The translations under genes were made by a program, and so were the position numbers. The notes beneath the pieces were generated by a model that saw only the letters and a list, made by a program, of their open reading frames with translations, was not told the origin of the DNA and searched no databases. Below, piece after piece: positions 1-10,268 of a stretch of 10,268 nt of DNA. This DNA is from a virus (lineage: Duplodnaviria > Heunggongvirae > Uroviricota > Caudoviricetes). Where the stretch lies: positions 1 through 10,268 of IMG/VR virus record IMGVR_UViG_2563366845_000009; one strand, written 5' to 3'. Each line of letters opens with the position of its first letter. The stretch's first letter is position 1.

Positions 1-1242
1 ATGGCACGAAAAACCACCCCACTAACTATTACGGAGATCAAAAACGCACGACCAGGGGAAAAGGAATACACCCTGCAGGATGGCGGAGGATTATTTCTTC
101 TGGTGAAACCCTCCGGATCAAAAATCTGGCGTTTTACGTACTACCGCCCGGCAGATAAAAAACGGACTATCATCAGCCTCGGATCGCTGAATGATGTTTC
201 CCTGTCCGATGCCAGAGAACGACGGAATGAATACAGGTCACTCATAGCGAAGGGAGTTGACCCACAGGACCACGAACGCCGGAAACGTGAAGCAGAGAGT
301 CGGAAAAAGGGCAACACGTTCGAAAAAGTTGCCTCGGACTGGTACGAGATGAAAAAAGGCCAGAATCTGGCTTACAACACGATTAAGGATATCTGGCGAT
401 CCCTGGAAAAATACGTATTCCCGTACATCGGAAACACGCCAATAGATACCCTCACAGCTCGCCGCTTTGTTGAGATACTCACACCCATTAAAGCACGCGG
501 CAACCTGGAAACCCTGAAACGCGTTTTACAACGCATCAATGAAGTGATGGATTTTGCTGCCAACAGTGGGCTGATTGACATCAACACCGCCGCGAACGTC
601 CGCAAGGCATTCCCCTCACCCACCAAAAAGCACATGCCAACCATCCGACCGGAACAGCTACCGCAGCTAATGCACGATTTATCGGTCGCCAGCATAGAAC
701 GGCAAACCAGATTGCTGATTGAGTGGCAACTGCTGACCGTAGCACGCCCAGCCGAAGCAGCCGCCGCACGCTGGGAAGAAATAGATCTCGATGCCGAAAC
801 ATGGACGATTCCAGCCGGACGCATGAAGATGCGCCGTGACCACGTGATCCCCCTTTGCGGTCAGGCTATGGCTGTACTGGAAACCATGAAGCCAATCAGC
901 GCACACAGGGAACACGTTTTTCCCAGCCTTAAAAACCCGATGCTGCCAATGAGCAGCCAGACCGCTAACGCCGCATTGCGCCGGATGGGTTACGCTGGTG
1001 TGCTGGTGTCTCACGGATTACGCGCCATATTCAGTACAGCAGCGAACGAGGAAGGATTCGAGCCGGACGTAATCGAGGCCGCACTCGCACACGTGGACAC
1101 AAACGAGGTAAGGCGAGCATATAACCGAAGTAACTACCTGGAAAAGCGCGTGGTGCTTATGCGCTGGTGGGGGGAATTTGTAGAGGCCGCAGCTACCGGA
1201 GTGACCATAGCCAGTGGTAAAAGGGGTATCCGTGCCGTGTAA
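1..1242 (+). CDS. int: Site-specific tyrosine recombinase, P4-type integrase family (N-terminal arm-binding domain plus C-terminal catalytic domain)
   Basis: 413-aa ORF with stop at 1240-1242. N-terminus (KNARPGEKEYTLQDGGGLFLLVKPSGSKIWRFTY) is typical of the P4-integrase N-terminal domain; C-terminus has the HGLRA box and a conserved Tyr region (RRAYNRSNYLEKR). No homology search was run. Confidence 0.93.
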   Translation: MARKTTPLTITEIKNARPGEKEYTLQDGGGLFLLVKPSGSKIWRFTYYRPADKKRTIISLGSLNDVSLSDARERRNEYRSLIAKGVDPQDHERRKREAESRKKGNTFEKVASDWYEMKKGQNLAYNTIKDIWRSLEKYVFPYIGNTPIDTLTARRFVEILTPIKARGNLETLKRVLQRINEVMDFAANSGLIDINTAANVRKAFPSPTKKHMPTIRPEQLPQLMHDLSVASIERQTRLLIEWQLLTVARPAEAAAARWEEIDLDAETWTIPAGRMKMRRDHVIPLCGQAMAVLETMKPISAHREHVFPSLKNPMLPMSSQTANAALRRMGYAGVLVSHGLRAIFSTAANEEGFEPDVIEAALAHVDTNEVRRAYNRSNYLEKRVVLMRWWGEFVEAAATGVTIASGKRGIRAV

Positions 1243-1266
1243 CTGTACAAAAAACCAGTAAAAGCG

Positions 1267-1295
1267 ATGCAAACCATGCTAAACCATCGTATAAT
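1267..1295 (+). promoter_or_regulatory. Candidate sigma70 promoter: perfect -10 TATAAT (1290-1295) with weak -35 (ATGCAA, 1267-1272)
   Basis: Perfect TATAAT hexamer about 60 bp upstream of the AAGGAG ribosome-binding site and GTG of the next ORF; the -35 matches consensus at only 3 of 6 positions. Confidence 0.3.
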
Positions 1296-1358
1296 CGCCA
1301 CAACCCACCCAATACAGAGAGGAGTCACCCAAATCATGAAATTCAAGGAGCTATCCAG

Positions 1359-1601
1359 GTGTTTTTCAATGAAAAGGTATCCCCTGCTTGCGGCGAAGGG
1401 CTGCAACTGGCGTTAATGGCAAATCGTGAATTCTGGTCAACATACGATCCGGAAGACAAATCAACAGCCCCCACAAAACACGAGGTAGTCAGTTTTTTGC
1501 GCTCACGTGGCGCATCGAAAAACCTGGCTGAAAGCATCGACAAGGTGCTGAGACCCACCAGCCTTAAATGCGGTGGGCGGCCTAAGAAGTGGAAACGGTA
1601 A
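1359..1601 (+). CDS. Hypothetical small protein (80 aa, GTG start; alternative ATG at 1416)
   Basis: AAGGAG (1345-1350) lies 8 nt upstream of GTG 1359; stop TAA 1599-1601 is followed immediately by a terminator hairpin. No recognisable motif. Confidence 0.4.
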   Translation: MFFNEKVSPACGEGLQLALMANREFWSTYDPEDKSTAPTKHEVVSFLRSRGASKNLAESIDKVLRPTSLKCGGRPKKWKR

Positions 1602-1607
1602 TCACAA

Positions 1608-1636
1608 TAGCGGCCCCTTGCGGTCGCTATTTTTTT
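1608..1636 (+). terminator. Rho-independent terminator candidate
   Basis: Imperfect 8-bp stem (TAGCGGCC / GGTCGCTA, one G-T wobble) at 1608-1629 followed by a run of seven T (1630-1636), directly after the stop at 1601. Confidence 0.45.
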
Positions 1637-1678
1637 GCAGAAAGAAAAGCGTAATCAATGAGATAAAAAACAGTGAGT

Positions 1679-1694
1679 ACCGTTTTAAAACGGT
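1679..1694. promoter_or_regulatory. Perfect 16-bp palindrome ACCGTTTTAAAACGGT upstream of the AlpA-family gene (candidate operator; alternatively part of a hairpin/terminator with the T-run at 1703-1707)
   Basis: Reverse complement is identical; extended by outer arms AGTACC (1676-1681) / GGTACT (1696-1701); lies about 80 bp upstream of the GTG at 1772. Confidence 0.35.
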
Positions 1695-1771
1695 GGGTAC
1701 TGTTTTTCCCGCCCTGCCCTGTTTTACCGTATTTATCACCGGAATACGCCGGATTAACGAGGTAAAACATA

Positions 1772-1978
1772 GTGGAAACAATCAGAAAAATACTTACCCG
1801 TCAGGAAGTAAAAAATATTCTGCGCATCAAGGCAGACAGTTCGCTACAGGACATGATCAACGCCGGAAAATTCCCGAAAGGCTTCAAAATCGGTCTGCGT
1901 CGTGTTGGCTGGTATGAAGATGAAGTGCTGGCCTGGCTGAAAGAGCGCGAGGAAGAAGCGCGCGGAACGGCTGCGTAA
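1772..1978 (+). CDS. alpA: AlpA-family (MerR-like HTH) phage transcriptional regulator / excisionase-like protein
   Basis: 68-aa ORF, GTG start with GAGGT 7 nt upstream; sequence (ILRIKADSSLQDMINAGKFPKGFKIGLRRVGWYEDEVLAWLKER) matches the conserved AlpA/Vis-family pattern, including the VGW motif. Confidence 0.82.
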   Translation: METIRKILTRQEVKNILRIKADSSLQDMINAGKFPKGFKIGLRRVGWYEDEVLAWLKEREEEARGTAA

Positions 1979-2260
1979 TGGTGTGAGGCGTAACGCGATG
2001 AACATAACAAAAAGCGCCCCGTTGCCGGAGCGCCCTTGCGAACAATTAACCTGCTGCGAAAAAAATGGATCAGTGCAGGGGAATTATATCAACCGTGTGG
2101 CGAAGCGCCACAATTGCCGGATAACAGGCAAAGAAAAGGCCACCAGTCACGGCGGCCCTGCGACACAAATTTCGCGTTATCCCCAACGCATGAGCATCGC
2201 CAACAATGCCACATTTGCGGCTGGTGGGCAATGTGATCAGTGTGCTGGCTTGCTGGTGGG

Positions 2261-2440
2261 CTATTCCTGCTCTTTGGCTTTGCGCCGCTGGCGGCGTTTG
2301 ATCTCGCCTTGCATTGACGCAATGATGAATTGTGATGTGCTTTCGCCTGATTCTTTCACTGATTCCATGGCGTTTACTATTTCGTGTGGTACACGAGCCT
2401 TTAGAGCTTGTGATTTTGCGTTTTTTGTACCCGTTGCCAT
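2261..2440 (-). CDS. Small ribbon-helix-helix (Arc/MetJ/CopG-like) DNA-binding protein, putative repressor
   Basis: Internal ATG of the 120-aa minus ORF at 2438-2440, preceded by GAGGAA (6-nt spacer); 59 aa, MATGTKNAKSQALKARVPHEIVNAMESVKESGESTSQFIIASMQGEIKRRQRRKAKEQE. Pattern is beta-strand (LKARVP), helix A, G-x-S turn (SGEST), helix B, then a basic tail. Transcribed divergently from the promoter at 2502-2541. Confidence 0.55.
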   Translation of the reverse strand: MATGTKNAKSQALKARVPHEIVNAMESVKESGESTSQFIIASMQGEIKRRQRRKAKEQE

Positions 2441-2501
2441 TTCTATTCCTCTGGTGGATTGGTGGGGGACAGTATACACAGAAAAAGCACAAATAAAACT
2501 C

Positions 2502-2541
2502 TTGACGTGGGCCACACCTAAAACATATAGTGGGCCACACC
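2502..2541 (+). promoter_or_regulatory. Candidate sigma70 promoter (TTGACG-N18-TATAGT) overlapped by two direct repeats of GTGGGCCACACC (putative operator)
   Basis: -35 TTGACG 2502-2507; -10 TATAGT 2526-2531; exact 12-bp repeats at 2507-2518 and 2530-2541 (23 bp centre to centre), each containing a GTGG..CCAC half-palindrome. Sits between the divergent RHH gene and the downstream + strand gene block. Confidence 0.45.
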
Positions 2542-2639
2542 TTGAAATTATCAAGGCGCATAAATGCAAAGCCCCGCAAGTGTCGTTACCACTCGCAGGG
2601 CTTCTAACCACCAACGATAGCAACGGTATCGAGGTAGCT

Positions 2640-3179
2640 ATGTTAAATCATACCACACACCCGCAAGGGTGGGACTCGCACAACCTGAATAAAGCGGGTA
2701 TGAAAAACCTGTTGATCGCCACTGCCAGCCAGGGCTATGATTTACCCGCACCAGCAAAATCTGGTGCCGGGATTGGCGTCCTGGTATTTAACGAAGCGCA
2801 CAACACGCGCCCTGCGTGTTTTTTTGTGCCGGATAGTCACACCTTATCAATGGTGGGCTGTATGGGGGCGGAGCAATCCGCGCCGGGTTCTTCGTTAACC
2901 GGTTACGCCAACCCTGTACAGTCCACCGCCAGCGAAATTGGCGTTTCCTGCGGTGGGTTTATTAAACCTAACGAAGAGGCTGCCAACATGGCTACTACCC
3001 CTACCCTTATACATTCCCAAACTGCCTTTATCTGGCGCTTTATCATCTTTGGCGCGTCAGAATCTCAAATCATCCACGTGACCGCCTGGACAGAACGCGA
3101 AGCGCGTAACCATTGCCCGTCCGGTTGTGTCGCTGTATTCGCCGCCCGTATTCGTCAGGAGGTGCGCCATGTGCAATAA
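2640..3179 (+). CDS. Hypothetical protein (179 aa), first gene downstream of the putative operator-controlled promoter
   Basis: ATG 2640 preceded by GAGG (5-nt spacer), in frame with the long 1983-3179 ORF whose 5' portion overlaps the antisense RHH gene and the promoter; typical coding composition; no recognisable motif. Alternative start at ATG 2700. Confidence 0.45.
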   Translation: MLNHTTHPQGWDSHNLNKAGMKNLLIATASQGYDLPAPAKSGAGIGVLVFNEAHNTRPACFFVPDSHTLSMVGCMGAEQSAPGSSLTGYANPVQSTASEIGVSCGGFIKPNEEAANMATTPTLIHSQTAFIWRFIIFGASESQIIHVTAWTEREARNHCPSGCVAVFAARIRQEVRHVQ

Positions 3180-3429
3180 CACCCGTCCGGATGCAACCAC
3201 CGAAGCTATCAAAACGCTGATGGATGCGCTGATTGATATTTCTGTTATCGCAGACAAAGCGCATAAGCACGCCACCACTGAAACAGAATATGCCGGGGCT
3301 TTCGTTCCTCACTCACTGGCTGTAATGCAACTTAGTGCTGATATGGCGCTGAATGAGGCTAAAGCCATCCTGATTGCTGATTGTGAAAATGGGGGGGGGT
3401 TATGCGTGATGATCGTTTTAATTCCCTGA
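3169..3429 (+). CDS. Hypothetical small protein (86 aa)
   Basis: Strong AGGAGG (3157-3162) 6 nt upstream of ATG 3169; overlaps the stop of the upstream gene (coupled). Its 3' end contains a G9 homopolymer (3391-3399). Confidence 0.5.
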   Translation: MCNNTRPDATTEAIKTLMDALIDISVIADKAHKHATTETEYAGAFVPHSLAVMQLSADMALNEAKAILIADCENGGGLCVMIVLIP

Positions 3430-3623
3430 AACAGGAATTTTCCGGCGTTCCTGATGATGCGGCTGATGCGCTTTCGTCAATATCTGAAATTATGCGGGTG
3501 GCTTTTTTCTTTCTTTGCACTGATGAGCACAGAGATACAGGGCTAAATATTCTTGATATTGCCGCTAACTATGCTGATTTCGTGACAGAAGCTGTTTTAA
3601 GAAAAACGACGGACGGGGATTAA
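3402..3623 (+). CDS. Hypothetical small protein (73 aa)
   Basis: ATG 3402 lies immediately after the G9 tract (G-rich ribosome-binding site); overlaps the previous ORF by 28 nt in the -1 frame; stop TAA 3621-3623. Confidence 0.45.
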   Translation: MRDDRFNSLKQEFSGVPDDAADALSSISEIMRVAFFFLCTDEHRDTGLNILDIAANYADFVTEAVLRKTTDGD

Positions 3624-3624
3624 T

Positions 3625-3858
3625 ATGCGTGATATTTACCACGAAACAATAGACCGCGCATTTCTTGCACTTTCTCACAGTGAAAGCATGATGGAAATAT
3701 TGCGCATATGGCTTGAAACACTTGGCGACAATGAACGCGACAAACAAAAATCAAGAATTGCCACGGCATTAATAACGCTTCTTGAGCCTGTAATAATGGA
3801 GCTACAAGAAATAGACCTATTGCACGACAGATATAAAGAACAGCACACCGGAGAATAA
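3625..3858 (+). CDS. Hypothetical small protein (77 aa)
   Basis: ATG 3625 is 1 nt after the previous stop, GGGGA 5 nt upstream; acidic/helical composition. Confidence 0.5.
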   Translation: MRDIYHETIDRAFLALSHSESMMEILRIWLETLGDNERDKQKSRIATALITLLEPVIMELQEIDLLHDRYKEQHTGE

Positions 3859-3863
3859 AAATA

Positions 3864-4163
3864 ATGAAACTTAAATATTCTGGCTTTACTGCCAGCGGCC
3901 CCGCTCGGCCTGAAATCCGCCCCGGCGATATTTTCAAAGATAAATACGGCGGCACTGTAACGATTAAAAGCGTGGCGGGACGGTGTGTTACTTACCGCCG
4001 TGATGGGTACGGCTATGACTGCGTGATGCCTGTTTATCAGTTCCGGCGTGATTTTTCTCTGGTACAGAACGCAACACGCGGTAAGCCCACCAGCAGGGAA
4101 AAAGCACGGGAAAATATTAAGAAAATAAAAAGCATGCTCAGCGCATCCAGAGGTAAAAAATGA
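3864..4163 (+). CDS. Hypothetical small basic protein (99 aa)
   Basis: ATG 3864 with GGAG upstream; stop TGA 4161-4163 overlaps the helicase ATG (ATGA coupling). Basic C-terminal tail. Possibly related to small proteins found upstream of replication genes in enterobacterial islands, but not verifiable here. Confidence 0.5.
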   Translation: MKLKYSGFTASGPARPEIRPGDIFKDKYGGTVTIKSVAGRCVTYRRDGYGYDCVMPVYQFRRDFSLVQNATRGKPTSREKARENIKKIKSMLSASRGKK

Positions 4164-5566
4164 AACTGGCACCGAACGTAAAACTGTTACCGAAAGATAA
4201 ACACACTGAGGCGGTTATTTTTGCGGGTGATAATGCTCACTCCTTTGCAGAACATTACATGATTGCACAGGCCAAAAAAGCAGGCGATCCCATCCCTCCG
4301 GTTTACCTGGGCCGTTATCAGTTAAGCGAACTGGACAATTTACAGATTGTTGATGAAGGACGATACAGAGCAAAGGTCATACGCGCCGGAAACCTGGACG
4401 ATATGCAGATGCTGACCATTGCCACCAAACTGGCGATCGCAGGTGTCCAGGAAGCACGGTTACTTTCAGAGAATTTCGAACTGCTGGAGGACTGGAGCGA
4501 GCAACTACCGCGGCTTAAAGAAACCTGGGAACGCGGGGAAAGTCTGGTCATGAATGGTGGAAAGCGAAAAATCACACTTCCCATCTCATGGGGTTCTGAG
4601 GGATTCGACGCGCAGCAAAGCTACGTAATTAAGGGGCTTATTCCGGCTGAGTCATTATGCAGCACCTACGGGGCCAGCGGTTCTTATAAATCGTTCCTGG
4701 CTATTTCCTGGTCGTGCCATGTTGCCACAGGTATGGCATGGGGAGGCCGCAGGGTAAGTAAGGGCGCTGTTATCTATATCGCTGGCGAAGGCAGTATGGG
4801 CGTAAAACGCCGCGTTAAGGCGTGGGAGATAACCCATGACAAGGTGGTTACAGATTTGTGCATCGTTAACGCGCCTGTCTTCCCCGCATCGCCTGACTAT
4901 GTGGAGCAGGTTATCAGGACTGCCGGACTTGTTAAGAGCAGAACGGGCGAAAATGTGCGGCTGATTGTGATCGACACGCTGGCCCGTTGCTTTGGTGGAA
5001 ATGATGAAAATGATTCCCGCGATATGGGCGCATTTATCCAGGGGTGTGACGCGATAAAGCAGGCCACAGGGGCCACGGTGCTGGTGGTTCACCATTCCGG
5101 CAAGGATGAAACAAAGGGGGCGCGCGGTTCCAGCGCATTCCGTGCCGCGCTTGATGCAGAGTACCGAATCAGCCGGGAAAATTCAGAGGTTACAGCACTG
5201 GTGGCGGCGTGTACGAAGATGAAGGACGCAGAGGAGCCAAAAGAGAGTGCATACGATCTTAAAAGCGTGGAGGTGTTCACCGATACAGATGGCGAAGAGA
5301 TTGTGTCCATGGTGGTGATTGACGTTCCCCGCGCCCCTGCTGAACTGGAGCGCATAGAGGAGGCCGGGAACAAGACGGAAAATCACACGGCTTTATGGGG
5401 TTGTATCCGGTCGCGTATACAGCATGGTGATAAATGTACGATCCCGCTGCTACGTGATGACATGAAAAAGCTGGGATATGACACAAAACACCTTAAACGA
5501 TGGTTAGCCAAACTGGAAAAAGACGGCGTGATTTGCGTCGATGGGGATGATGTTCACCCACTGTAA
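4160..5566 (+). CDS. Replicative helicase, RepA / AAA_25 (RecA-like, DnaB-superfamily) ATPase
   Basis: 468 aa; Walker A-like GASGSYKS, Walker B-like hydrophobic stretch ending in Asp (RLIVIDTLARCF), and the VLVVHHSGKD motif typical of RepA-type helicases; GAGG ribosome-binding site 6 nt upstream; followed immediately by the iteron array. Confidence 0.82.
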   Translation: MKLAPNVKLLPKDKHTEAVIFAGDNAHSFAEHYMIAQAKKAGDPIPPVYLGRYQLSELDNLQIVDEGRYRAKVIRAGNLDDMQMLTIATKLAIAGVQEARLLSENFELLEDWSEQLPRLKETWERGESLVMNGGKRKITLPISWGSEGFDAQQSYVIKGLIPAESLCSTYGASGSYKSFLAISWSCHVATGMAWGGRRVSKGAVIYIAGEGSMGVKRRVKAWEITHDKVVTDLCIVNAPVFPASPDYVEQVIRTAGLVKSRTGENVRLIVIDTLARCFGGNDENDSRDMGAFIQGCDAIKQATGATVLVVHHSGKDETKGARGSSAFRAALDAEYRISRENSEVTALVAACTKMKDAEEPKESAYDLKSVEVFTDTDGEEIVSMVVIDVPRAPAELERIEEAGNKTENHTALWGCIRSRIQHGDKCTIPLLRDDMKKLGYDTKHLKRWLAKLEKDGVICVDGDDVHPL

Positions 5567-5766
5567 AAAGTGGGCGTTAAAAGTGGGAGTAGTGGGTAAT
5601 TTAACTGGAATTTAACAAAATCGCCCACTTTCCCACGTGTATACATCCCAAAAAGTGGGCACTAAAAAAATACTTATGAAACAGTACGATATAAAACCAC
5701 AAAATCCCAGGTGGGACGAAGTGGGAAACCATGAAAAGTGGGCAGAAAAAGTGGGCACAGGTGGGC
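5565..5766 (+). repeat. Iteron-type replication origin: nine direct copies of (A)AAGTGGGC in two clusters, two inverted copies, and an AT-rich spacer
   Basis: GTGGG cores on + at 5570, 5583, 5592, 5656, 5711, 5721, 5738, 5751, 5761; inverted CCCAC at 5624-5628 and 5632-5636; AT-rich 5598-5620 (AATTTAAC twice) and 5661-5705; immediately 3' of the helicase gene. Confidence 0.7.
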
Positions 5767-5768
5767 GC

Positions 5769-6020
5769 ATGACAAGAAAAACCAGAGATAAGACAGCACC
5801 AAAATATAAAGCGTTAGACATGACAGAGCACGCCTTAAAGGTGGCAATCAGAACTATAGACCGCCACGCCGGAGAAGGATACGCGAAAGCACATCCCGAA
5901 CTGATAAGCGCATTCATGACCACGGCGGCGGCAAACTTTGCCACGCTGACAGAACGGGAGATTGCCGAAGCGGAACTGGTGACAACCATCAACGTTAAAA
6001 CCGGAGAGCAGACAGCATGA
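5769..6020 (+). CDS. Hypothetical protein (83 aa), translationally coupled to ssb
   Basis: ATG 5769 with GGTGGG 5 nt upstream; the longer 5637 start would run through the iterons; stop TGA 6018-6020 overlaps the ssb ATG 6017. Confidence 0.45.
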   Translation: MTRKTRDKTAPKYKALDMTEHALKVAIRTIDRHAGEGYAKAHPELISAFMTTAAANFATLTEREIAEAELVTTINVKTGEQTA

Positions 6021-6439
6021 CAGCACAGATAGCGGCTTACGGGCGGCTGGTGGCTGACCCGCAGTTAAAGACCACCAGCAAAGGGACACAAATGGCGATG
6101 GCGAGTATGGCGGTTCCCCTGCCGTGCAGCCAGGCCGATGACGGAACGGCGACGATGTGGTTATCCGTCCTGGCGTTTGGCAGACAGGCCGACGCACTGG
6201 CAAAGCACCACAAAGGCGAACTCGTGAGCGTGGCGGGTAACATGCAGGTAAGCCAGTGGACAGGCCAGAACGGCGAAACGCGGCAGGGCTGGCAGGTTAT
6301 CGCAGACAGCGTAATCAGTGCGCGAACGGCGCGACCGGGCGGCAAAAAAGGCCAACAGGGGCAGGCCACTGATGCACTGAACAGGGCAAAACAACAGGCG
6401 GGAAATGATGATCCGTACGGGGATAACATACCGTTTTAA
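6017..6439 (+). CDS. ssb: Single-stranded DNA-binding protein (short SSB with acidic C-terminal tail)
   Basis: 140 aa; N-terminus (AYGRLVADPQLKTT, then QWTGQNGETRQ) fits the SSB OB-fold pattern; Gly/Gln-rich linker; C-terminal DDPYGDNIPF resembles the conserved SSB tail (E. coli ends ...DDDIPF). Confidence 0.85.
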   Translation: MTAQIAAYGRLVADPQLKTTSKGTQMAMASMAVPLPCSQADDGTATMWLSVLAFGRQADALAKHHKGELVSVAGNMQVSQWTGQNGETRQGWQVIADSVISARTARPGGKKGQQGQATDALNRAKQQAGNDDPYGDNIPF

Positions 6440-6456
6440 GCAACGAGTGACAGAAG

Positions 6457-6478
6457 CCGGGATTTTCCCGGTTTTTTT
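6457..6478 (+). terminator. Rho-independent terminator downstream of ssb
   Basis: Stem CCGGG(A)/(T)CCCGG (6457-6471) followed by seven T (6472-6478). Confidence 0.6.
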
Positions 6479-6527
6479 ACGGGTCCTCCCGGTGGAGTGG
6501 CCTTACCACGGGGCGGGAGCGGCGCGG
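6472..6527 (+). other. cos-like site, copy A (cosQ/cosN-like core with a divergent right half)
   Basis: 6472-6516 (TTTTTTTACGGGTCCTCCCGGTGGAGTGGCCTTACCACGGGGCGG) is identical to 9009-9053; the next 11 nt match copy B at 8 of 11. Contains dyad CCCGGTGG-N10-CCACGGGG and the ACG|GGGCGG junction resembling the lambda cosN nick site. Confidence 0.5.
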
Positions 6528-6740
6528 AAAAAGGCTGGTTTTTGCATTTTCATGGCGGCGGCAGCATGTGTGATAATTTATTGATAATTAAAAAATATTT
6601 CCGTTTTCACCTGTACAATATTTTTTTCGCCCTGTCATTAGACCAGTTTGTAATTAATTGAAATATATAAATAAATCCGTTTTTCACCTGCCAGGTGGAG
6701 TTGCCAGTGTCAAAACGTGTTCAGATGGCGGGATATTTAT

Positions 6741-6763
6741 GCCGGATTTTCTCCGGCTTTTTT
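6741..6763 (+). terminator. Second rho-independent terminator-like hairpin in the ssb-capsid intergenic region
   Basis: GCCGGA-TTTTC-TCCGGC (6741-6757) followed by TTTTTT (6758-6763). Confidence 0.45.
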
Positions 6764-6865
6764 GTGTCTGAATCTGACTAATCTGTTTTCATGATAGAAA
6801 TATATTTATCTACCACTTTTATCGATCAATAATGCGCGCAGTTTAGTCAGTAAGAGGAAGTTACT

Positions 6866-7075
6866 GTGAATTGTATTAATGACCTGAACACAGGCGAGGT
6901 AAGAGGTGGTTCCGTTCATCTGGATGCGCAGACCGTTATGCGCCTTAAGCAGTACAGGATCGACCACATAAATCATCATCCTGGCCAACCATTACCAGGT
7001 GTGGCGCAGATTGTCAGACACGCAGTTAACGCGTGGCTTGATAAGAATGGTTTTGCATCTGGGGGTGAGCAATGA
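6866..7075 (+). CDS. Hypothetical small protein (69 aa), translationally coupled to the protease-capsid gene
   Basis: GTG 6866 with GAGGA 7 nt upstream; stop TGA 7073-7075 overlaps ATG 7072; basic region (VHLDAQTVMRLKQYRIDHINHH) could bind nucleic acid. Confidence 0.5.
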   Translation: MNCINDLNTGEVRGGSVHLDAQTVMRLKQYRIDHINHHPGQPLPGVAQIVRHAVNAWLDKNGFASGGEQ

Positions 7076-8985
7076 ATCACTGGTACACCATTAAGGCGGC
7101 GGGTGTTCGCGGAGCGGCAGAAATATCCATCTATGAAGAAATTGGCGGCTTCGGTATCACCGCGAAGCAGTTTGCGGAAGACCTGAAAGCCCTGGGCGAT
7201 GTCTCACATATCGACCTGCGGATCCATTCGCCAGGTGGTGACGTGTTTGAAGGCATCGCCATCTATAACCTGTTACGGAATCATCCGGCAGAAATTACGG
7301 TTTATATCGATGGTGTTGCGGCTTCAATGGCTTCGGTTGTCGCAATGGCTGGCGATCGTGTTGTGATGCCGGAAAACGCCATGATGATGATACATAAGCC
7401 GTGGGGTATCTCTGGCGGAAATGCTGGTGATATGCGTGATTATGCTGATTTGCTGGATAAGGTGGAAACCGTGTTAATCCCTGCTTATGCCAGAAAAACG
7501 GGCAAATCAGCACAGGAAATTACCGCCATGCTGGAAGATGAAACCTGGATGGACGGGAAAGAATGCCTTAAGCAAGGTTTTGCTGATGAATTGTTGCCAT
7601 CCGTCAGAGCAATGGCGCGAATTGAATCGAAACGCACAGGAGATTTTTCACACATGCCGGAAACCATTAAAGGAATGATTACCCCGCCACAGGGAGCAGC
7701 CAATATTGCTGGTAATGAACAGAAGCGCATCAACGGAATAAGTGAAGTGTTTAGCCTGTTCGGCAGTCGTTACGACGGGATCAAAATGGCGTGCCTGGAA
7801 GATGCATCATGTACACCGGAGATGGCCCGTGAAAAGTTGTTGAACGAGATGGGGCGCGAGTCCACGCCATCAAATAAAAATACCCCGGCTCATATTTATG
7901 CCGGTAACGGGAACATAACAGGTGATGCAATTCGTCAGGGGCTTTATTCTCGTCTCGGGTATGAACGCCCAGAGCGGGGAAATCCTTACGCGATGATGAG
8001 CCTTTTTGAAATGGCCCAGGCATCACTAACGGATCGTGGTATCAGTGTTGGCGGTTTTTTAAATCGCTCGCAGGTCGTTAATGCAGCTTTCACACACAGC
8101 AGCAGCGATTTTTCTCATATTCTGGCTGGTGGTGCTGAAAAATCAGTACTGAAAGGCTGGCAGGACAGCGGCGAAACGTTTCAGAAATGGACGCGTACCG
8201 GATCGCTTTCAAACTTTCATGAAGCAAAGCGCGTTGGTCTGAATGGTTTTTCAAAGCTGGATAAAGTACCGGAAGGTGCGGAATATAAATACATCACCAC
8301 CAGAGATAAAGGTGTACCTATTGCGCTGGCCACGTACGGGAATATTTTTTCCGTTACCCGTCAGGCCATTATCAACGATGACCTGACCCAGTTAACTACA
8401 ATCCCCATGGCGATGGGGCGTGCGGCCGCCAGAACAGTAGGTAATCTGGTTTATCTTCTGTTAACCAGCAACGGCAAATTTACGGATGGTAAAGCGTTAT
8501 TCCATGCCGATCATAAAAATCTTATTGCGAAGGATATGGACATGGAGGGGCTTAACGAAGCCCGTAAGCTGATGCGACTACAGGAGGATGCCAACGGCGA
8601 CTCCCTGAATATTACCCCCGCTTTTGTTCTGGTCCCTGCTGCGCTGGAGTCTGCCGCACATCGCGCCATTCTGTCATCGTCATCACTCTTTCCGGTTGAT
8701 GGTGAGGGCACTATCAATCAGAACCCCGGCATCATTAACGTGGTGAAAGATATGGCTGAGGTTATTGTTGAGCCACGTCTTGATAAGAACAATAACAAGG
8801 AGTGGTATGTAGCCGCAGCGAAAGGGATGGACACGATAGAGGTCGCTTATCTTGATGGTATTGATACGCCATATCTTGAGGAGCAGGAGGGCTTTACTGT
8901 TGATGGTGTCGCCTGGAAGGTGCGCATAGATGCAGGTGTTGCGGCCCTCGATTATCGTGGACTACTGAAATCGAGTGGAGCATGA
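7072..8985 (+). CDS. Fused prohead protease (ClpP/S14-like serine protease) and HK97-fold major capsid protein
   Basis: 637 aa; N-terminal ~200 aa has the ClpP-like catalytic Ser context (GVAASMASVVAMAG) and His context (MMMIHKPWG); the C-terminal ~400 aa is consistent with a Mu gpT / HK97-type major head protein; an ORF of this length with no internal stops is strong coding evidence. Confidence 0.88.
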   Translation: MNHWYTIKAAGVRGAAEISIYEEIGGFGITAKQFAEDLKALGDVSHIDLRIHSPGGDVFEGIAIYNLLRNHPAEITVYIDGVAASMASVVAMAGDRVVMPENAMMMIHKPWGISGGNAGDMRDYADLLDKVETVLIPAYARKTGKSAQEITAMLEDETWMDGKECLKQGFADELLPSVRAMARIESKRTGDFSHMPETIKGMITPPQGAANIAGNEQKRINGISEVFSLFGSRYDGIKMACLEDASCTPEMAREKLLNEMGRESTPSNKNTPAHIYAGNGNITGDAIRQGLYSRLGYERPERGNPYAMMSLFEMAQASLTDRGISVGGFLNRSQVVNAAFTHSSSDFSHILAGGAEKSVLKGWQDSGETFQKWTRTGSLSNFHEAKRVGLNGFSKLDKVPEGAEYKYITTRDKGVPIALATYGNIFSVTRQAIINDDLTQLTTIPMAMGRAAARTVGNLVYLLLTSNGKFTDGKALFHADHKNLIAKDMDMEGLNEARKLMRLQEDANGDSLNITPAFVLVPAALESAAHRAILSSSSLFPVDGEGTINQNPGIINVVKDMAEVIVEPRLDKNNNKEWYVAAAKGMDTIEVAYLDGIDTPYLEEQEGFTVDGVAWKVRIDAGVAALDYRGLLKSSGA

Positions 8986-8992
8986 CAACAAG

Positions 8993-9015
8993 GGCGGCGA
9001 TAGCCGCCTTTTTTT
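8993..9015 (+). terminator. Rho-independent terminator downstream of the capsid gene
   Basis: GGCGGC-GATA-GCCGCC perfect 6-bp stem (8993-9008) followed by seven T (9009-9015); the T-run is also the first 7 nt of the cos repeat. Confidence 0.6.
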
Positions 9016-9090
9016 ACGGGTCCTCCCGGTGGAGTGGCCTTACCACGGGGCGGCAGACGCGCGGGTTTTCGCTATTTATGAGCCTTTTTC
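9009..9090 (+). other. Lambda-like cos site, copy B (cosQ/cosN plus proximal cosB), directly upstream of the small terminase gene
   Basis: Window CCACG|GGGCGGCAGACG|CGCGGGTTTTCGCTATTTATGA (9043-9082) compared with the lambda left end as recalled from memory (GGGCGGCGACCT CGCGGGTTTTCGCTATTTATGA): predicted 12-nt cohesive end GGGCGGCAGACG (9048-9059), followed by a 22-nt match to lambda. Upstream TACGGGTCCT matches the lambda right-end motif. Confidence 0.65.
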
Positions 9091-9192
9091 GGGTGCTGGT
9101 GGTGGTTTTGTTGTTCGCTCTATCTCTATGAATAAAAAGGGAAAGATAAAACAAATACACCAACCTGAAACATTACTTAAGTGGGGATATTG

Positions 9193-9735
9193 ATGAAATC
9201 GCACCTGATGAACAAAAAAAACATGGCGCAAAGCTGCCGTGTAAGTGCGACAGCGTTCGACAAGTGGGGAGTGACTCCCGTTGAACGTAAAGGCCGCGAG
9301 GCGTTTTATGATGTTGCCAGCGTAATAGACAATCGGGTTAGCAATGCAATTAACCAGATTACAGACGACAAAGGCGAGATTGATAATGATGAGCTTTTGC
9401 GAGTCAGGATCAGATTGCTGACAGCGCAGGCGGAGGCGCAGGAGCTTAAAAACGAGCGCGAACGCGGCGACGTGATTAGTACGGAATTTTGTATATATGC
9501 GCTTTCAAAACTGGCGAGTCAGATTTCATCTATCATGGACAGCCTGCCGCTTACCATGCAAAGGCGCTTCCCACAGATGACCCCCGCCATGCTGGATGGC
9601 CTGAAAAAAGAAGTTGTCAGAGCCTGTAACGCATGCACAAAACTTGATGAAAACATCCCGCGAATGCTGTCCGATTATCTGATGGAAACTACCGGAAATG
9701 TGTCTGATAAGTTTCAGCCGGATAAAGACAAGTAA
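9193..9735 (+). CDS. Terminase small subunit, lambda Nu1-like (winged-HTH cosB-binding)
   Basis: By recollection of lambda Nu1: LLTAQAEAQELKNERERGDVISTEFCIYALSKLASQISSIMDSLPLTMQRRFPQ aligns with RLTRAQADAQELKNARDSAEVVETAFCTFVLSRIAGEIASILDGLPLSVQRRFPE, and LDENIPRMLSDYL with LDELIPGLLSEYI. Start is ambiguous (GTG 9181, ATG 9193, ATG 9208); 9193 gives 180 aa. Confidence 0.85.
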   Translation: MKSHLMNKKNMAQSCRVSATAFDKWGVTPVERKGREAFYDVASVIDNRVSNAINQITDDKGEIDNDELLRVRIRLLTAQAEAQELKNERERGDVISTEFCIYALSKLASQISSIMDSLPLTMQRRFPQMTPAMLDGLKKEVVRACNACTKLDENIPRMLSDYLMETTGNVSDKFQPDKDK

Positions 9736-9753
9736 CGTAGTGCACAATGACCG

Positions 9754-9776
9754 AAGCCAGTTTACTGACTGGCTTT
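9754..9776 (+). terminator. Weak hairpin / possible terminator after the terminase gene
   Basis: AAGCCAGT-TTACTG-ACTGGCTT 8-bp stem (9754-9775) followed by only TTT. Confidence 0.3.
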
Positions 9777-9896
9777 CAGCGTTGCGCTGGTGGGAGTTAT
9801 GCGTCAGTGATGAACAAAAAATAATCGAAATCGACACCGAAAAATAAAACATCAAGTCATATCAATATATTGCATTGGTGGTGATGACGAATAAAA

Positions 9897-10268
9897 ATGC
9901 AAAAACTAGCCTTTTTCCGCGATGCTCCCGCCCCGTGGCAGGGCACCCCACCAGGAGGACCCGCCATCACTATGGAGGCCATGACCATGACCGAGACCGA
10001 AGCGCTCGGGATAATCCGCAGTATTACCGGAATCAGCCAGCAGGCTGACGAACAGGCCACGCAGCCGGATACAGTCACCGCTGAAAATTACGCGCGTGTG
10101 ATGGCTGAGGTGATGCGCCGTGACGGTATCGAGCTTAATGGCGTGGATATACGCAACATACGCACCAGAGTTCTGGAGATGTTGTCGTACCGTCGCCGCG
10201 TGCAGATGTACCAGGAGAAAGAAAAAATTACGTACCAGTGGAAGAAGCCGGAGCGGTTACGGCGATAA
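9897..10268 (+). CDS. Hypothetical protein (123 aa from ATG 9897; alternative 98-aa start at ATG 9972)
   Basis: Open frame ending at TAA 10266-10268; ATG 9897 has no Shine-Dalgarno; the in-frame ATG 9972 has AGGAGG (9953-9958) but a long 13-nt spacer. No recognisable motif. Confidence 0.4.
   Translation: MQKLAFFRDAPAPWQGTPPGGPAITMEAMTMTETEALGIIRSITGISQQADEQATQPDTVTAENYARVMAEVMRRDGIELNGVDIRNIRTRVLEMLSYRRRVQMYQEKEKITYQWKKPERLRR

Follow-up and report, generated by a model that had tools for sequence, protein, structure and literature searches.

Gram-negative phage-inducible chromosomal islands (PICIs) share a published layout in which an integration zone, a variable "Bro/immunity" zone, a replication zone and a late zone can be told apart (PMC10111431), and AlpA is their published activator (PMC11773190, PMC6092414). 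In the prototype, EcCICFT073, AlpA activates its own promoter, deletion of alpA abolishes transfer, and overexpression of AlpA alone leads to excision and uncontrolled replication (PMC6092414). No repressor is described for EcCICFT073; the original study stated that the global repressor in Gram-negative elements was unclear (PMC6092414), and its view of these islands was repeated later (PMC11773190, PMC10111431). Here we analyze a stretch of 10,268 nucleotides (positions 1 to 10,268 of the IMG/VR virus record IMGVR_UViG_2563366845_000009, hereafter the window), in which the gene order is that of the published Gram-negative PICI layout (PMC10111431) and in which a gene for a 59-amino-acid ribbon-helix-helix (RHH) protein faces a repeat-bearing promoter on the opposite strand. 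Comparative evidence strongly supports the view that this protein is most likely the repressor of the early/replication operon and reads the repeats as its operators, a reading to which we assign a probability of roughly three in four.

In P4, the CI immunity RNA and its seqA target are produced from an internal promoter that is constitutive, and termination is escaped only by those transcripts that start at an upstream promoter and are translated through eta (PMC10111431). The AlpA protein of Pseudomonas acts as a processive antiterminator and is loaded at its promoter, in which it recognizes an element (PMC7969949, PMC9371919). The island to which the window belongs measures about 11 kb and is inserted at tRNA-Pro in E. 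coli, with yejM and yejO as its neighbors; the window is 99.9% identical to E. coli strain RM11911. Every one of its genes but the RHH gene lies on the + strand. The RHH gene and its sites form a cassette that bears on the explicitly open question of the Gram-negative PICI repressor, and EcCICFT073 carries this cassette as well.

The RHH gene and the sites around its promoter

The 59-amino-acid protein (MATGTKNAKSQALKARVPHEIVNAMESVKESGESTSQFIIASMQGEIKRRQRRKAKEQE) is encoded behind a GAGG Shine-Dalgarno sequence. From its sequence and predicted fold, we place it with confidence in the RHH superfamily and in the NCBIfam family YlcI/YnfO (NF041551), which it matches with 67.4 bits against a cut-off of 30 (E = 8.4e-19) and whose name RefSeq gives to the identical protein. 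It lies outside Pfam DUF3950 (PF13132), showing no match at E <= 0.1, whereas E. coli K-12 YlcI reaches 72.8 bits (E = 2e-20). An AlphaFold2 monomer model, built on an alignment of 42 homologues, has a predicted local distance difference test score (pLDDT) of 90 and an extended N-terminus followed by two helices, which corresponds to the strand-helix-helix fold of about 45 residues that defines the superfamily. Residues G32-E33-S34 form the G-x-S/T/N turn between the helices, in which S/T/N caps the N-terminus of helix B; among homologues E33 is invariant, S34 is conserved in at least 90% and G32 in at least 70%. In the crystal structure of Arc bound to its operator, Q9, N11 and R13 are the base-contacting residues, and hhalign aligns A12, K14 and R16 of the window protein with these three. 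The minus-strand RHH protein named in the first-pass annotation is thus borne out by the gene itself, by the fold prediction and by the turn.

The family spans 83 protein clusters and 72 species-level loci. Some members are about 101 amino acids long (L075 of E. coli C311 and L078 of Nissle 1917; P0074 and P0077); in these, about 40 inserted residues, predicted to be helical, precede the conserved basic C-terminal tail and could be an oligomerization or partner-binding module. None of the papers searched mentions the RHH gene.

The promoter facing the gene, TTGACG-N18-TATAGT, agrees with the sigma-70 consensus at 10 of 12 positions, and no other sigma-70-like match in the window, on either strand, is as good; the total of promoter-like matches in the window is not above the shuffled expectation. 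The transcription start of this promoter is predicted near 2538. Two copies of GTGGGCCACACC, at 2507-2518 and 2530-2541, overlap it and are the only exact copies in the 10.3 kb. The full exact repeat is 13 nt long (GTGGGCCACACCT), with a start-to-start distance of 23 bp. In first-order Markov simulations, an exact 12-mer pair 12-40 nt apart arose anywhere in the window in 10 of 300 runs (about 3%), so that the repeat taken alone is suggestive and the decisive evidence is conservation across loci.

Both the promoter and the pair of repeats had been described in the first-pass annotation; to these we add a third, degenerate site. All three (O1, O2 and O3; Table 1) follow the pattern GTG-N5-CAC with palindromic GTG/CAC flanks. 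O1 and O2 overlap the -35 and -10/+1 elements of the + strand promoter, and O3 (GTGGGGGACAG) overlaps TATACT, the putative -10 of the RHH gene. The sites therefore cover core elements of both back-to-back promoters, as would be expected of an immunity repressor's operators, with the start sites on both sides being predicted, that of the RHH gene near 2464.

Two further matches to the pattern stand apart from these sites. Within the RHH gene, the R-V-P-H codons (2384-2394) read GTGTACCACAC on the gene strand and so form a GTG-N5-CAC element, probably a coincidence of conserved codons. A copy of the repeat with two mismatches at 6998-7009, upstream of the capsid gene, was not counted, being about what chance would give: by our own estimate for 10.3 kb and both strands, 0.8 copies are expected at up to two mismatches, and there is no excess at up to three.

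Operator cores, protein residues and cassette exchange

To compare the sites across the family, we took 72 homologue loci from one-genome-per-species contigs and read 220 nt upstream of each gene. A canonical promoter is present at 58 of these, and in 53 of the 58 all three sites are in place and within three mismatches of one another. The 46 distinct loci among those with all three sites share a fixed architecture. O3 stands 21 nt from the ATG in 44 of them; in 37 its final triplet is CAG instead of CAC, which marks it as the copy that is systematically imperfect; AGTATA, which is TATACT and a good -10 on the gene strand, is found by O3 at a fixed offset in 35. A -35 TTGA occurs at a fixed offset (61) in 42, and across loci O1 starts on the last base of TTGAC(G/A). 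O2 lies 22-25 or 35 bp from O1 in other loci, as a direct or inverted copy, at -10/+1.

Within this fixed frame the core varies. The GTG and CAC flanks are near-invariant, whereas N5 takes 19 different values, and the cores agree at 4.65 of 5 bases within a locus versus 1.75 of 5 between loci. Such likeness inside each locus, set against divergence from one locus to the next, requires a trans-acting reader whose specificity is particular to the island. Over 48 distinct protein/operator combinations, operator class shares most normalized mutual information with residues 12 (0.73) and 14 (0.74), compared with 0.27-0.43 at the equally variable positions of the C-terminal tail, and R16 is invariant. 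Variation at the alternate positions 12 and 14 beside a fixed R16 would be the pattern expected of an RHH reading strand. The pairings run as follows, with residues 12/14 given first: A or S/K with GGCCA or GACCA, K/E with GCTGA, K/Q with GAGTC, Q/N with CGATT, M/T with TATTT, and S/T with TAAGA. With the position of the sites on the promoter, this covariation over about 50 loci supports the proposal of the first-pass annotation that the repeats are operators of the divergent RHH protein.

Islands that share one genome carry different cores. Yersinia pekkanenii carries TCCGA, TATTT and GAACA; the co-resident cores of Xenorhabdus mauleonii are GCTGA, TATTT and TAAGA; and X. innexi, X. santafensis and X. 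sp. IM139775 have two core classes each. The one repeat of a class within a genome (L039/L040) involves a 1.5-kb contig. Different cores among co-resident islands are what would be expected of heteroimmune repressors.

As a separate observation, the more distant members L024, L054, L057, L060, L061 and L067 have CCTTATCCACAGGT directly after O2; within this sequence, a perfect match to the DnaA-box consensus (TTATCCACA) falls at the predicted transcription start.

Closely related islands help to locate the reader. L074 of E. coli STEC308 occupies the same tRNA-Pro site and matches the window with 94-95% identity over 1-2144 and 2562-3359, but between these limits it carries a different, Arc-like 59-amino-acid RHH protein (…PFQFRLDPDLREKMEKA…) and different repeats (TGTAATTACAC). 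L075 of strain C311 has instead a 101-amino-acid family member with S12/T14 and TAAGA-type sites. Since RHH protein and repeats are swapped together between islands that are otherwise about 95% identical, the reader must be encoded inside 2145-2561, where the RHH gene is the only conserved open reading frame (ORF). Repressor and operator specificity thus change together and are exchanged as a module, which is the behavior of an immunity repressor.

The same comparison bears on whether the repeats are instead AlpA sites, for activation or for antiterminator loading, with the small minus-strand ORF incidental. This alternative, raised in the first-pass annotation, draws on the short distance to alpA (300 bp), on the published role of AlpA as PICI activator and on the recognition of an element inside a promoter by Pseudomonas AlpA. 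However, the AlpA proteins of the window, L074 and L075 are 97-98.5% identical, and their repeats are of the GGCCA, Arc and TAAGA types, respectively. Conversely, the GGCCA core is found with three unrelated AlpA types, and EcCICFT073 and L002 carry identical GGCCA repeats with unrelated AlpA types. O157:H7 TX 376-2 and strain 07_3337 have K/E and GCTGA in common but unrelated AlpA proteins, while Nissle 1917 and 07_3337 have the same AlpA with a different RHH protein and core. Each of six AlpA clusters (at least 90% identity) is paired with two or more cores. The repeats also lie downstream of alpA, away from its own promoter. Given this reassortment of cores against AlpA clusters, we reject the alternative as highly improbable.

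It is likewise most unlikely that a helper-phage or host protein reads the sites while the RHH protein serves as a type II antitoxin, an excision factor or a packaging accessory factor. A host reader is at odds with cores that differ within one species and even within one genome, and 50,697 phage records contain no close homologue of the RHH protein. The sites lie on promoter elements and not at att or cos, and a conserved partner gene is absent: after the RHH gene, ORFs of at least 45 amino acids are missing from 24 of 49 loci and unrelated in the rest. We specifically discarded a type II antitoxin on account of the missing cognate toxin, as the window has no partner gene and shows two minus-strand terminators after the RHH gene.

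In EcCICFT073, the cassette lies between alpA and the Icd-like gene. Its RHH protein (C_RS30120) is identical at 58 of 59 residues, O1 and O2 are identical, O3 is degenerate in the same way, and the AlpA type is unrelated to that of the window. Judging from the locus tags, the small genes of EcCICFT073 entered the annotation only when it was revised at a later date. PICI-like islands of O157:H7 and Nissle 1917 have related cassettes, and matches to the cassette, some of them partial, are present in 1,298 of 5,426 complete E. coli genomes, 68 of which have the exact operator class of the window. EcCICFT073 (L082, NC_004431.1) additionally has a 57-amino-acid, highly basic ORF (MTDKELTKTLSPARKRRRRK...) at 9243-9416 on the minus strand, after the RHH gene and on the same strand, with no Pfam match; comparing the two sequences by eye, the window appears to be without this segment.

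The downstream operon and a proposed mechanism

Between O2 and the first ORF of the operon lies a structured 5' leader. In 29 sequences from many genera, 93% of cells are compatible with its pairing versus 24-45% in slid controls, 7 of 12 pairs show compensatory changes, and UCUAACCACCAAC is conserved between the two hairpins; Rfam gave no match for the leader at E <= 1. The first ORF, with an Ash domain and then an Icd-like C-terminus, resembles P4 eta/kil and overlaps the isrK and C4 RNAs. RefSeq splits this frame into an 'ash' pseudogene and a separate Icd-like gene. A strong terminator after ssb suggests that the + strand promoter serves the early/replication operon and not the capsid and small terminase (terS) genes.

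A promoter-like site inside the first ORF is followed by isrK (seqA-like) and C4 (CI-like), the elements of a P4-type RNA immunity. Forti et al. (1999) reportedly gave the same picture of P4 immunity as that described above. The RHH-controlled promoter may thus occupy the place of the P4-like, immunity-insensitive upstream promoter. Among 18 representative related loci, neither isrK nor C4 was found at Rfam gathering scores; blastn found none either, and we therefore dropped these RNAs as a standing partner of the cassette and treat them as an add-on in the window. As the Icd-like gene of those relatives follows directly after the leader, the RHH protein is the only recognizable negative element there.

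These observations frame a serious rival, quantitative in kind, to which we give a small but appreciable chance: the RHH protein binds the sites but is secondary, limited to autoregulation or to immunity against islands of the same class, with AlpA and isrK/C4 in control. In its favor, EcCICFT073 is induced when AlpA alone is overexpressed and is no longer transferred once alpA is deleted, the window has a complete P4-type RNA immunity module downstream, and O3 makes autoregulation part of the design. Against this stand the placement of O1 and O2 on -35 and -10/+1 of a near-consensus promoter in about 50 loci, the 18 loci in which the RHH protein has no isrK/C4 beside it, and the promoter itself, which as a near-consensus element would need repression rather than activation, all the more as it precedes an Icd-like division inhibitor and replication genes.

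Several points count against the RHH protein as operon repressor and must be set beside its support. Foldseek, a sequence profile search of the PDB and Pfam gave no match for the protein, its hhalign similarity to Arc is weak (probability 18%), and we found no functional study of YlcI, YnfO or DUF3950 in the literature searched. The proposed RHH-gene promoter has a weak, A/T-rich -35 region with no recognizable hexamer and was missed by the promoter scan; O3 has two core mismatches to O1 and O2, both in the window and in EcCICFT073, which may make autoregulation weak. Residues and cores do not map one-to-one, since TCCGA is common to L010 (K12, S14) and L021 (R12, D14) and TGTAT to L026 and L038. 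With only 20-100 bp between gene and operators, the covariation partly reflects co-inheritance and does not prove recognition by itself; the weight of the recognition argument comes from the concerted three-site pattern and from elimination. Finally, induction of EcCICFT073 by AlpA overexpression alone indicates that repression is not dominant over AlpA. The master switch proposed in the first-pass annotation is accordingly retained in part: the reading as a repressor/operator cassette is strongly supported, whereas sole mastery is countered by AlpA-driven induction of EcCICFT073 and by the isrK/C4 layer downstream.

From the sequence anatomy, fold prediction, conservation, covariation and cassette exchange, we propose a model in which DNA binding, repression, autoregulation and an AlpA override would be combined as follows. 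An RHH dimer made from the self-contained, exchangeable cassette would read GTG-N5-CAC with its N-terminal beta-strand, residues 12 and 14 contacting the variable core and the invariant R16 the conserved flanks. Bound to O1, abutting the -35, and to O2, it would occlude the + strand promoter and keep the early operon of the resting island silent, namely the eta/Icd-like gene, DUF4222, the RepA helicase and SSB, with the operon probably ending at the terminator after ssb. On the weaker O3 it would limit its own synthesis, a three-operator layout like that of lambda OR but built for an RHH protein. The 5-bp core would act as immunity specificity, such that co-resident islands with different cores would not cross-regulate. 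Because AlpA induces EcCICFT073 despite the cassette, AlpA would act above or around the RHH lock, and induction would probably not proceed via the RHH protein alone: a helper phage would switch on AlpA, and AlpA would override the lock. The most likely route, which is speculative, is that transcripts begun at the alpA promoter continue in antisense over the RHH gene and then past the operators to reach the operon. On the + strand, the terminator scan gave no strong call from alpA to the cassette; there are just two weak terminator-like hairpins, at 2255-2271 and 2392-2412, and the two strong terminators between alpA and the RHH gene act on the minus strand only.

A bolder version of this model, which we put forward tentatively and consider doubtful as a whole, is that the cassette is the missing global repressor of Gram-negative PICIs and the counterpart of Stl. 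Its loss would then induce the island without a helper, the two-residue code would define at least 19 heteroimmune classes and allow several satellites per cell, and induction would come from AlpA-driven, antiterminated antisense transcription (a convergent-transcription toggle) or from a helper protein acting on the basic C-terminal helix. If the RHH protein is the resting-state lock, PICI induction would become a two-key process, at least part of the YlcI/YnfO "y-ome" family would gain a function, the pairing of residues 12/14 with the core would offer a natural orthogonal set of mini-repressors and operators for synthetic biology, and PICI-based "drones" could be made controllable or mutually compatible by choice of cassette.

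The remaining genes of the window follow the layout of the island (Table 1). Its late zone (7072-9735) consists only of a protease/capsid fusion and the small terminase subunit, and no portal or large terminase gene was found in the island as bounded by yejO in RM11911. The Rfam int-alpA RNA (RF02996) was not detected in the window; it lies between int and alpA in 7 of 18 related islands scanned (L002, L009, L010, L024, L041, L048 and L055). An unannotated 69-amino-acid ORF at 6866-7075 on the + strand overlaps the start of the protease/capsid gene by 4 nt and shows, as judged by eye, a strand-helix-helix pattern (…VHLDAQTVMRLKQYRI…GVAQIVRHAVNAWL…); it had no family match, its single-sequence AlphaFold2 model has low confidence (pLDDT 58, two helices), and RefSeq annotates a minus-strand ORF there instead.

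A + strand frame of 398 codons (1983-3179) stays open from just past the alpA stop into the Ash/Icd ORF, covering on its way the entire RHH gene, to which it is antisense, and the promoter region. Its family support is limited to the Ash/Icd part from 2640 onward, and the portion upstream of 2640 was set aside as a coding sequence and treated as a non-coding remnant. For Nissle 1917, KE21 and 07_3337, RefSeq has a pseudogene fragment on the + strand in the interval from alpA to the RHH gene; in Nissle 1917 and KE21 this fragment is Icd-like. Together, these fragments and the 398-codon frame hint that the cassette was inserted into an ancestral alpA-eta/icd unit.

Table 1 Positions of the cassette, the early operon and the other features of the window
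Feature	Position	Strand	Details
RHH gene (YlcI/YnfO family), 59 aa	2261-2440	-	Stop codon 2261-2263, ATG 2440-2438
Predicted -10 of the RHH gene, TATACT	2471-2476	-	Overlapped by O3
O3, degenerate, GTG-GGGGA-CAG	2462-2472		About -8 to +3 of the predicted own promoter of the RHH gene
Sigma-70-like promoter TTGACG-N18-TATAGT	2502-2531	+	-35 at 2502-2507, -10 at 2526-2531; early/replication operon
O1, GTG-GGCCA-CAC(CT)	2507-2519	+	11-bp site 2507-2517, -31 to -21; begins on the last -35 base
O2, GTG-GGCCA-CAC(CT)	2530-2542	+	11-bp site 2530-2540, about -8 to +3; begins inside the -10 hexamer
Exchangeable cassette	2145-2561		RHH gene, terminator, both promoters, three operators, inverted repeat CCTTGA...TCAAGG (2540-2556)
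Intrinsic terminator, RHH transcript	2136-2159	-	Terminator scan
Second minus-strand terminator	2010-2037	-	Terminator scan
Structured 5' leader	2566-2639	+	Hairpin 2569-2603, single strand UCUAACCACCAAC, hairpin 2616-2630; between O2/promoter and first ORF
First operon ORF, Ash/Icd-like, 179 aa	2640-3179	+	Pfam PF10554 E = 1.9e-15; NCBIfam Icd-like E = 1.7e-15; followed by two small ORFs and a DUF4222 gene
Internal promoter-like site	2712-2741	+	9/12 positions; ends 7 nt before isrK
isrK (seqA-like) and its terminator	2748-2824	+	Rfam 80 bits (gathering score 50)
C4 (CI-like) RNA	2846-2933	+	Rfam 75.3 bits (gathering score 45)
RepA-like helicase	4160-5566	+	
SSB	6017-6439	+	
Strong intrinsic terminator after ssb	6741-6757	+	Terminator scan; likely end of the early operon
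int	1-1242	+	
61-aa ORF	1416-1601	+	int-alpA interval
Terminator	1606-1631		int-alpA interval
alpA (Phage_AlpA)	1772-1978	+	Pfam PF05930, E = 4.5e-8; upstream of the cassette, convergent with the RHH gene
ClpP-protease/major-capsid fusion	7072-8985	+	
Small terminase subunit	9181-9735	+	

Comparison with described systems

In mechanism, the proposed repressor cassette resembles the immI region of P22 (Mnt/Arc, with divergent Pant and Pmnt), where a small RHH repressor is likewise encoded divergently from the promoter that it represses, with operators in the core promoter and autoregulation, and where the controlled operon also begins with an antirepressor/Icd-type module. The two differ in that family-level homology is not detectable (hhalign 18%), that the cassette has three separate 11-bp GTG/CAC sites and P22 one operator of 17-21 bp, and that the cassette resides in a phage satellite and is combined with P4/P1-type C4 RNA immunity. 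The conserved basic extension of helix B in the cassette protein, EIKRRQRRK, has no counterpart in Arc.

In position, the cassette recalls Stl from the pathogenicity islands found in Staphylococcus aureus (SaPIs) and Rpr of Gram-positive PICIs. These too lie between the int side and the replication operon and are transcribed away from that operon; their islands are quiescent without a helper phage, and their repressor sequences are diverse among related islands. However, they are large helix-turn-helix proteins derepressed by binding of a helper protein, whereas the window encodes a 59-amino-acid RHH protein with no known inducer, and the Gram-negative model island can be induced by overexpressing AlpA alone (PMC6092414).

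With P4 the window shares isrK and C4 within an Ash/Icd ORF whose start, like that of eta, precedes an internal promoter, and an AlpA/Vis homologue further upstream; the RHH-controlled promoter would take the place of an upstream promoter such as PLL. By contrast, PLL, which delta/Ogr activates, is located upstream of vis, the vis-eta interval of P4 contains no protein repressor cassette, and most relatives of the cassette are without isrK and C4.

The three operators between back-to-back promoters, two on the lytic promoter and a weaker one on the repressor's own, resemble lambda OR, as does the joint divergence of operator and repressor specificity into immunity types. The fold is RHH here versus helix-turn-helix in lambda, and the window protein has no SOS-cleavable domain.

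Within E. coli K-12, YlcI (DLP12) and YnfO (Qin) belong to the same NCBIfam family, NF041551. YlcI, the one member examined, is also small, with an RHH-like R-x-P followed by two helices; unlike the cassette gene it adjoins cos/nohD of a lambdoid prophage, it matches DUF3950, which the window protein does not, and the operator triad GTG-N5-CAC was looked for at K-12 ylcI and was absent. Collectively, the similarity to Mnt/Arc, lambda OR and Stl/Rpr is one of mechanism or position and not of homology; what emerges from the comparison of loci is an uncharacterized RHH family that would act as an exchangeable repressor/operator cassette in Gram-negative satellites.

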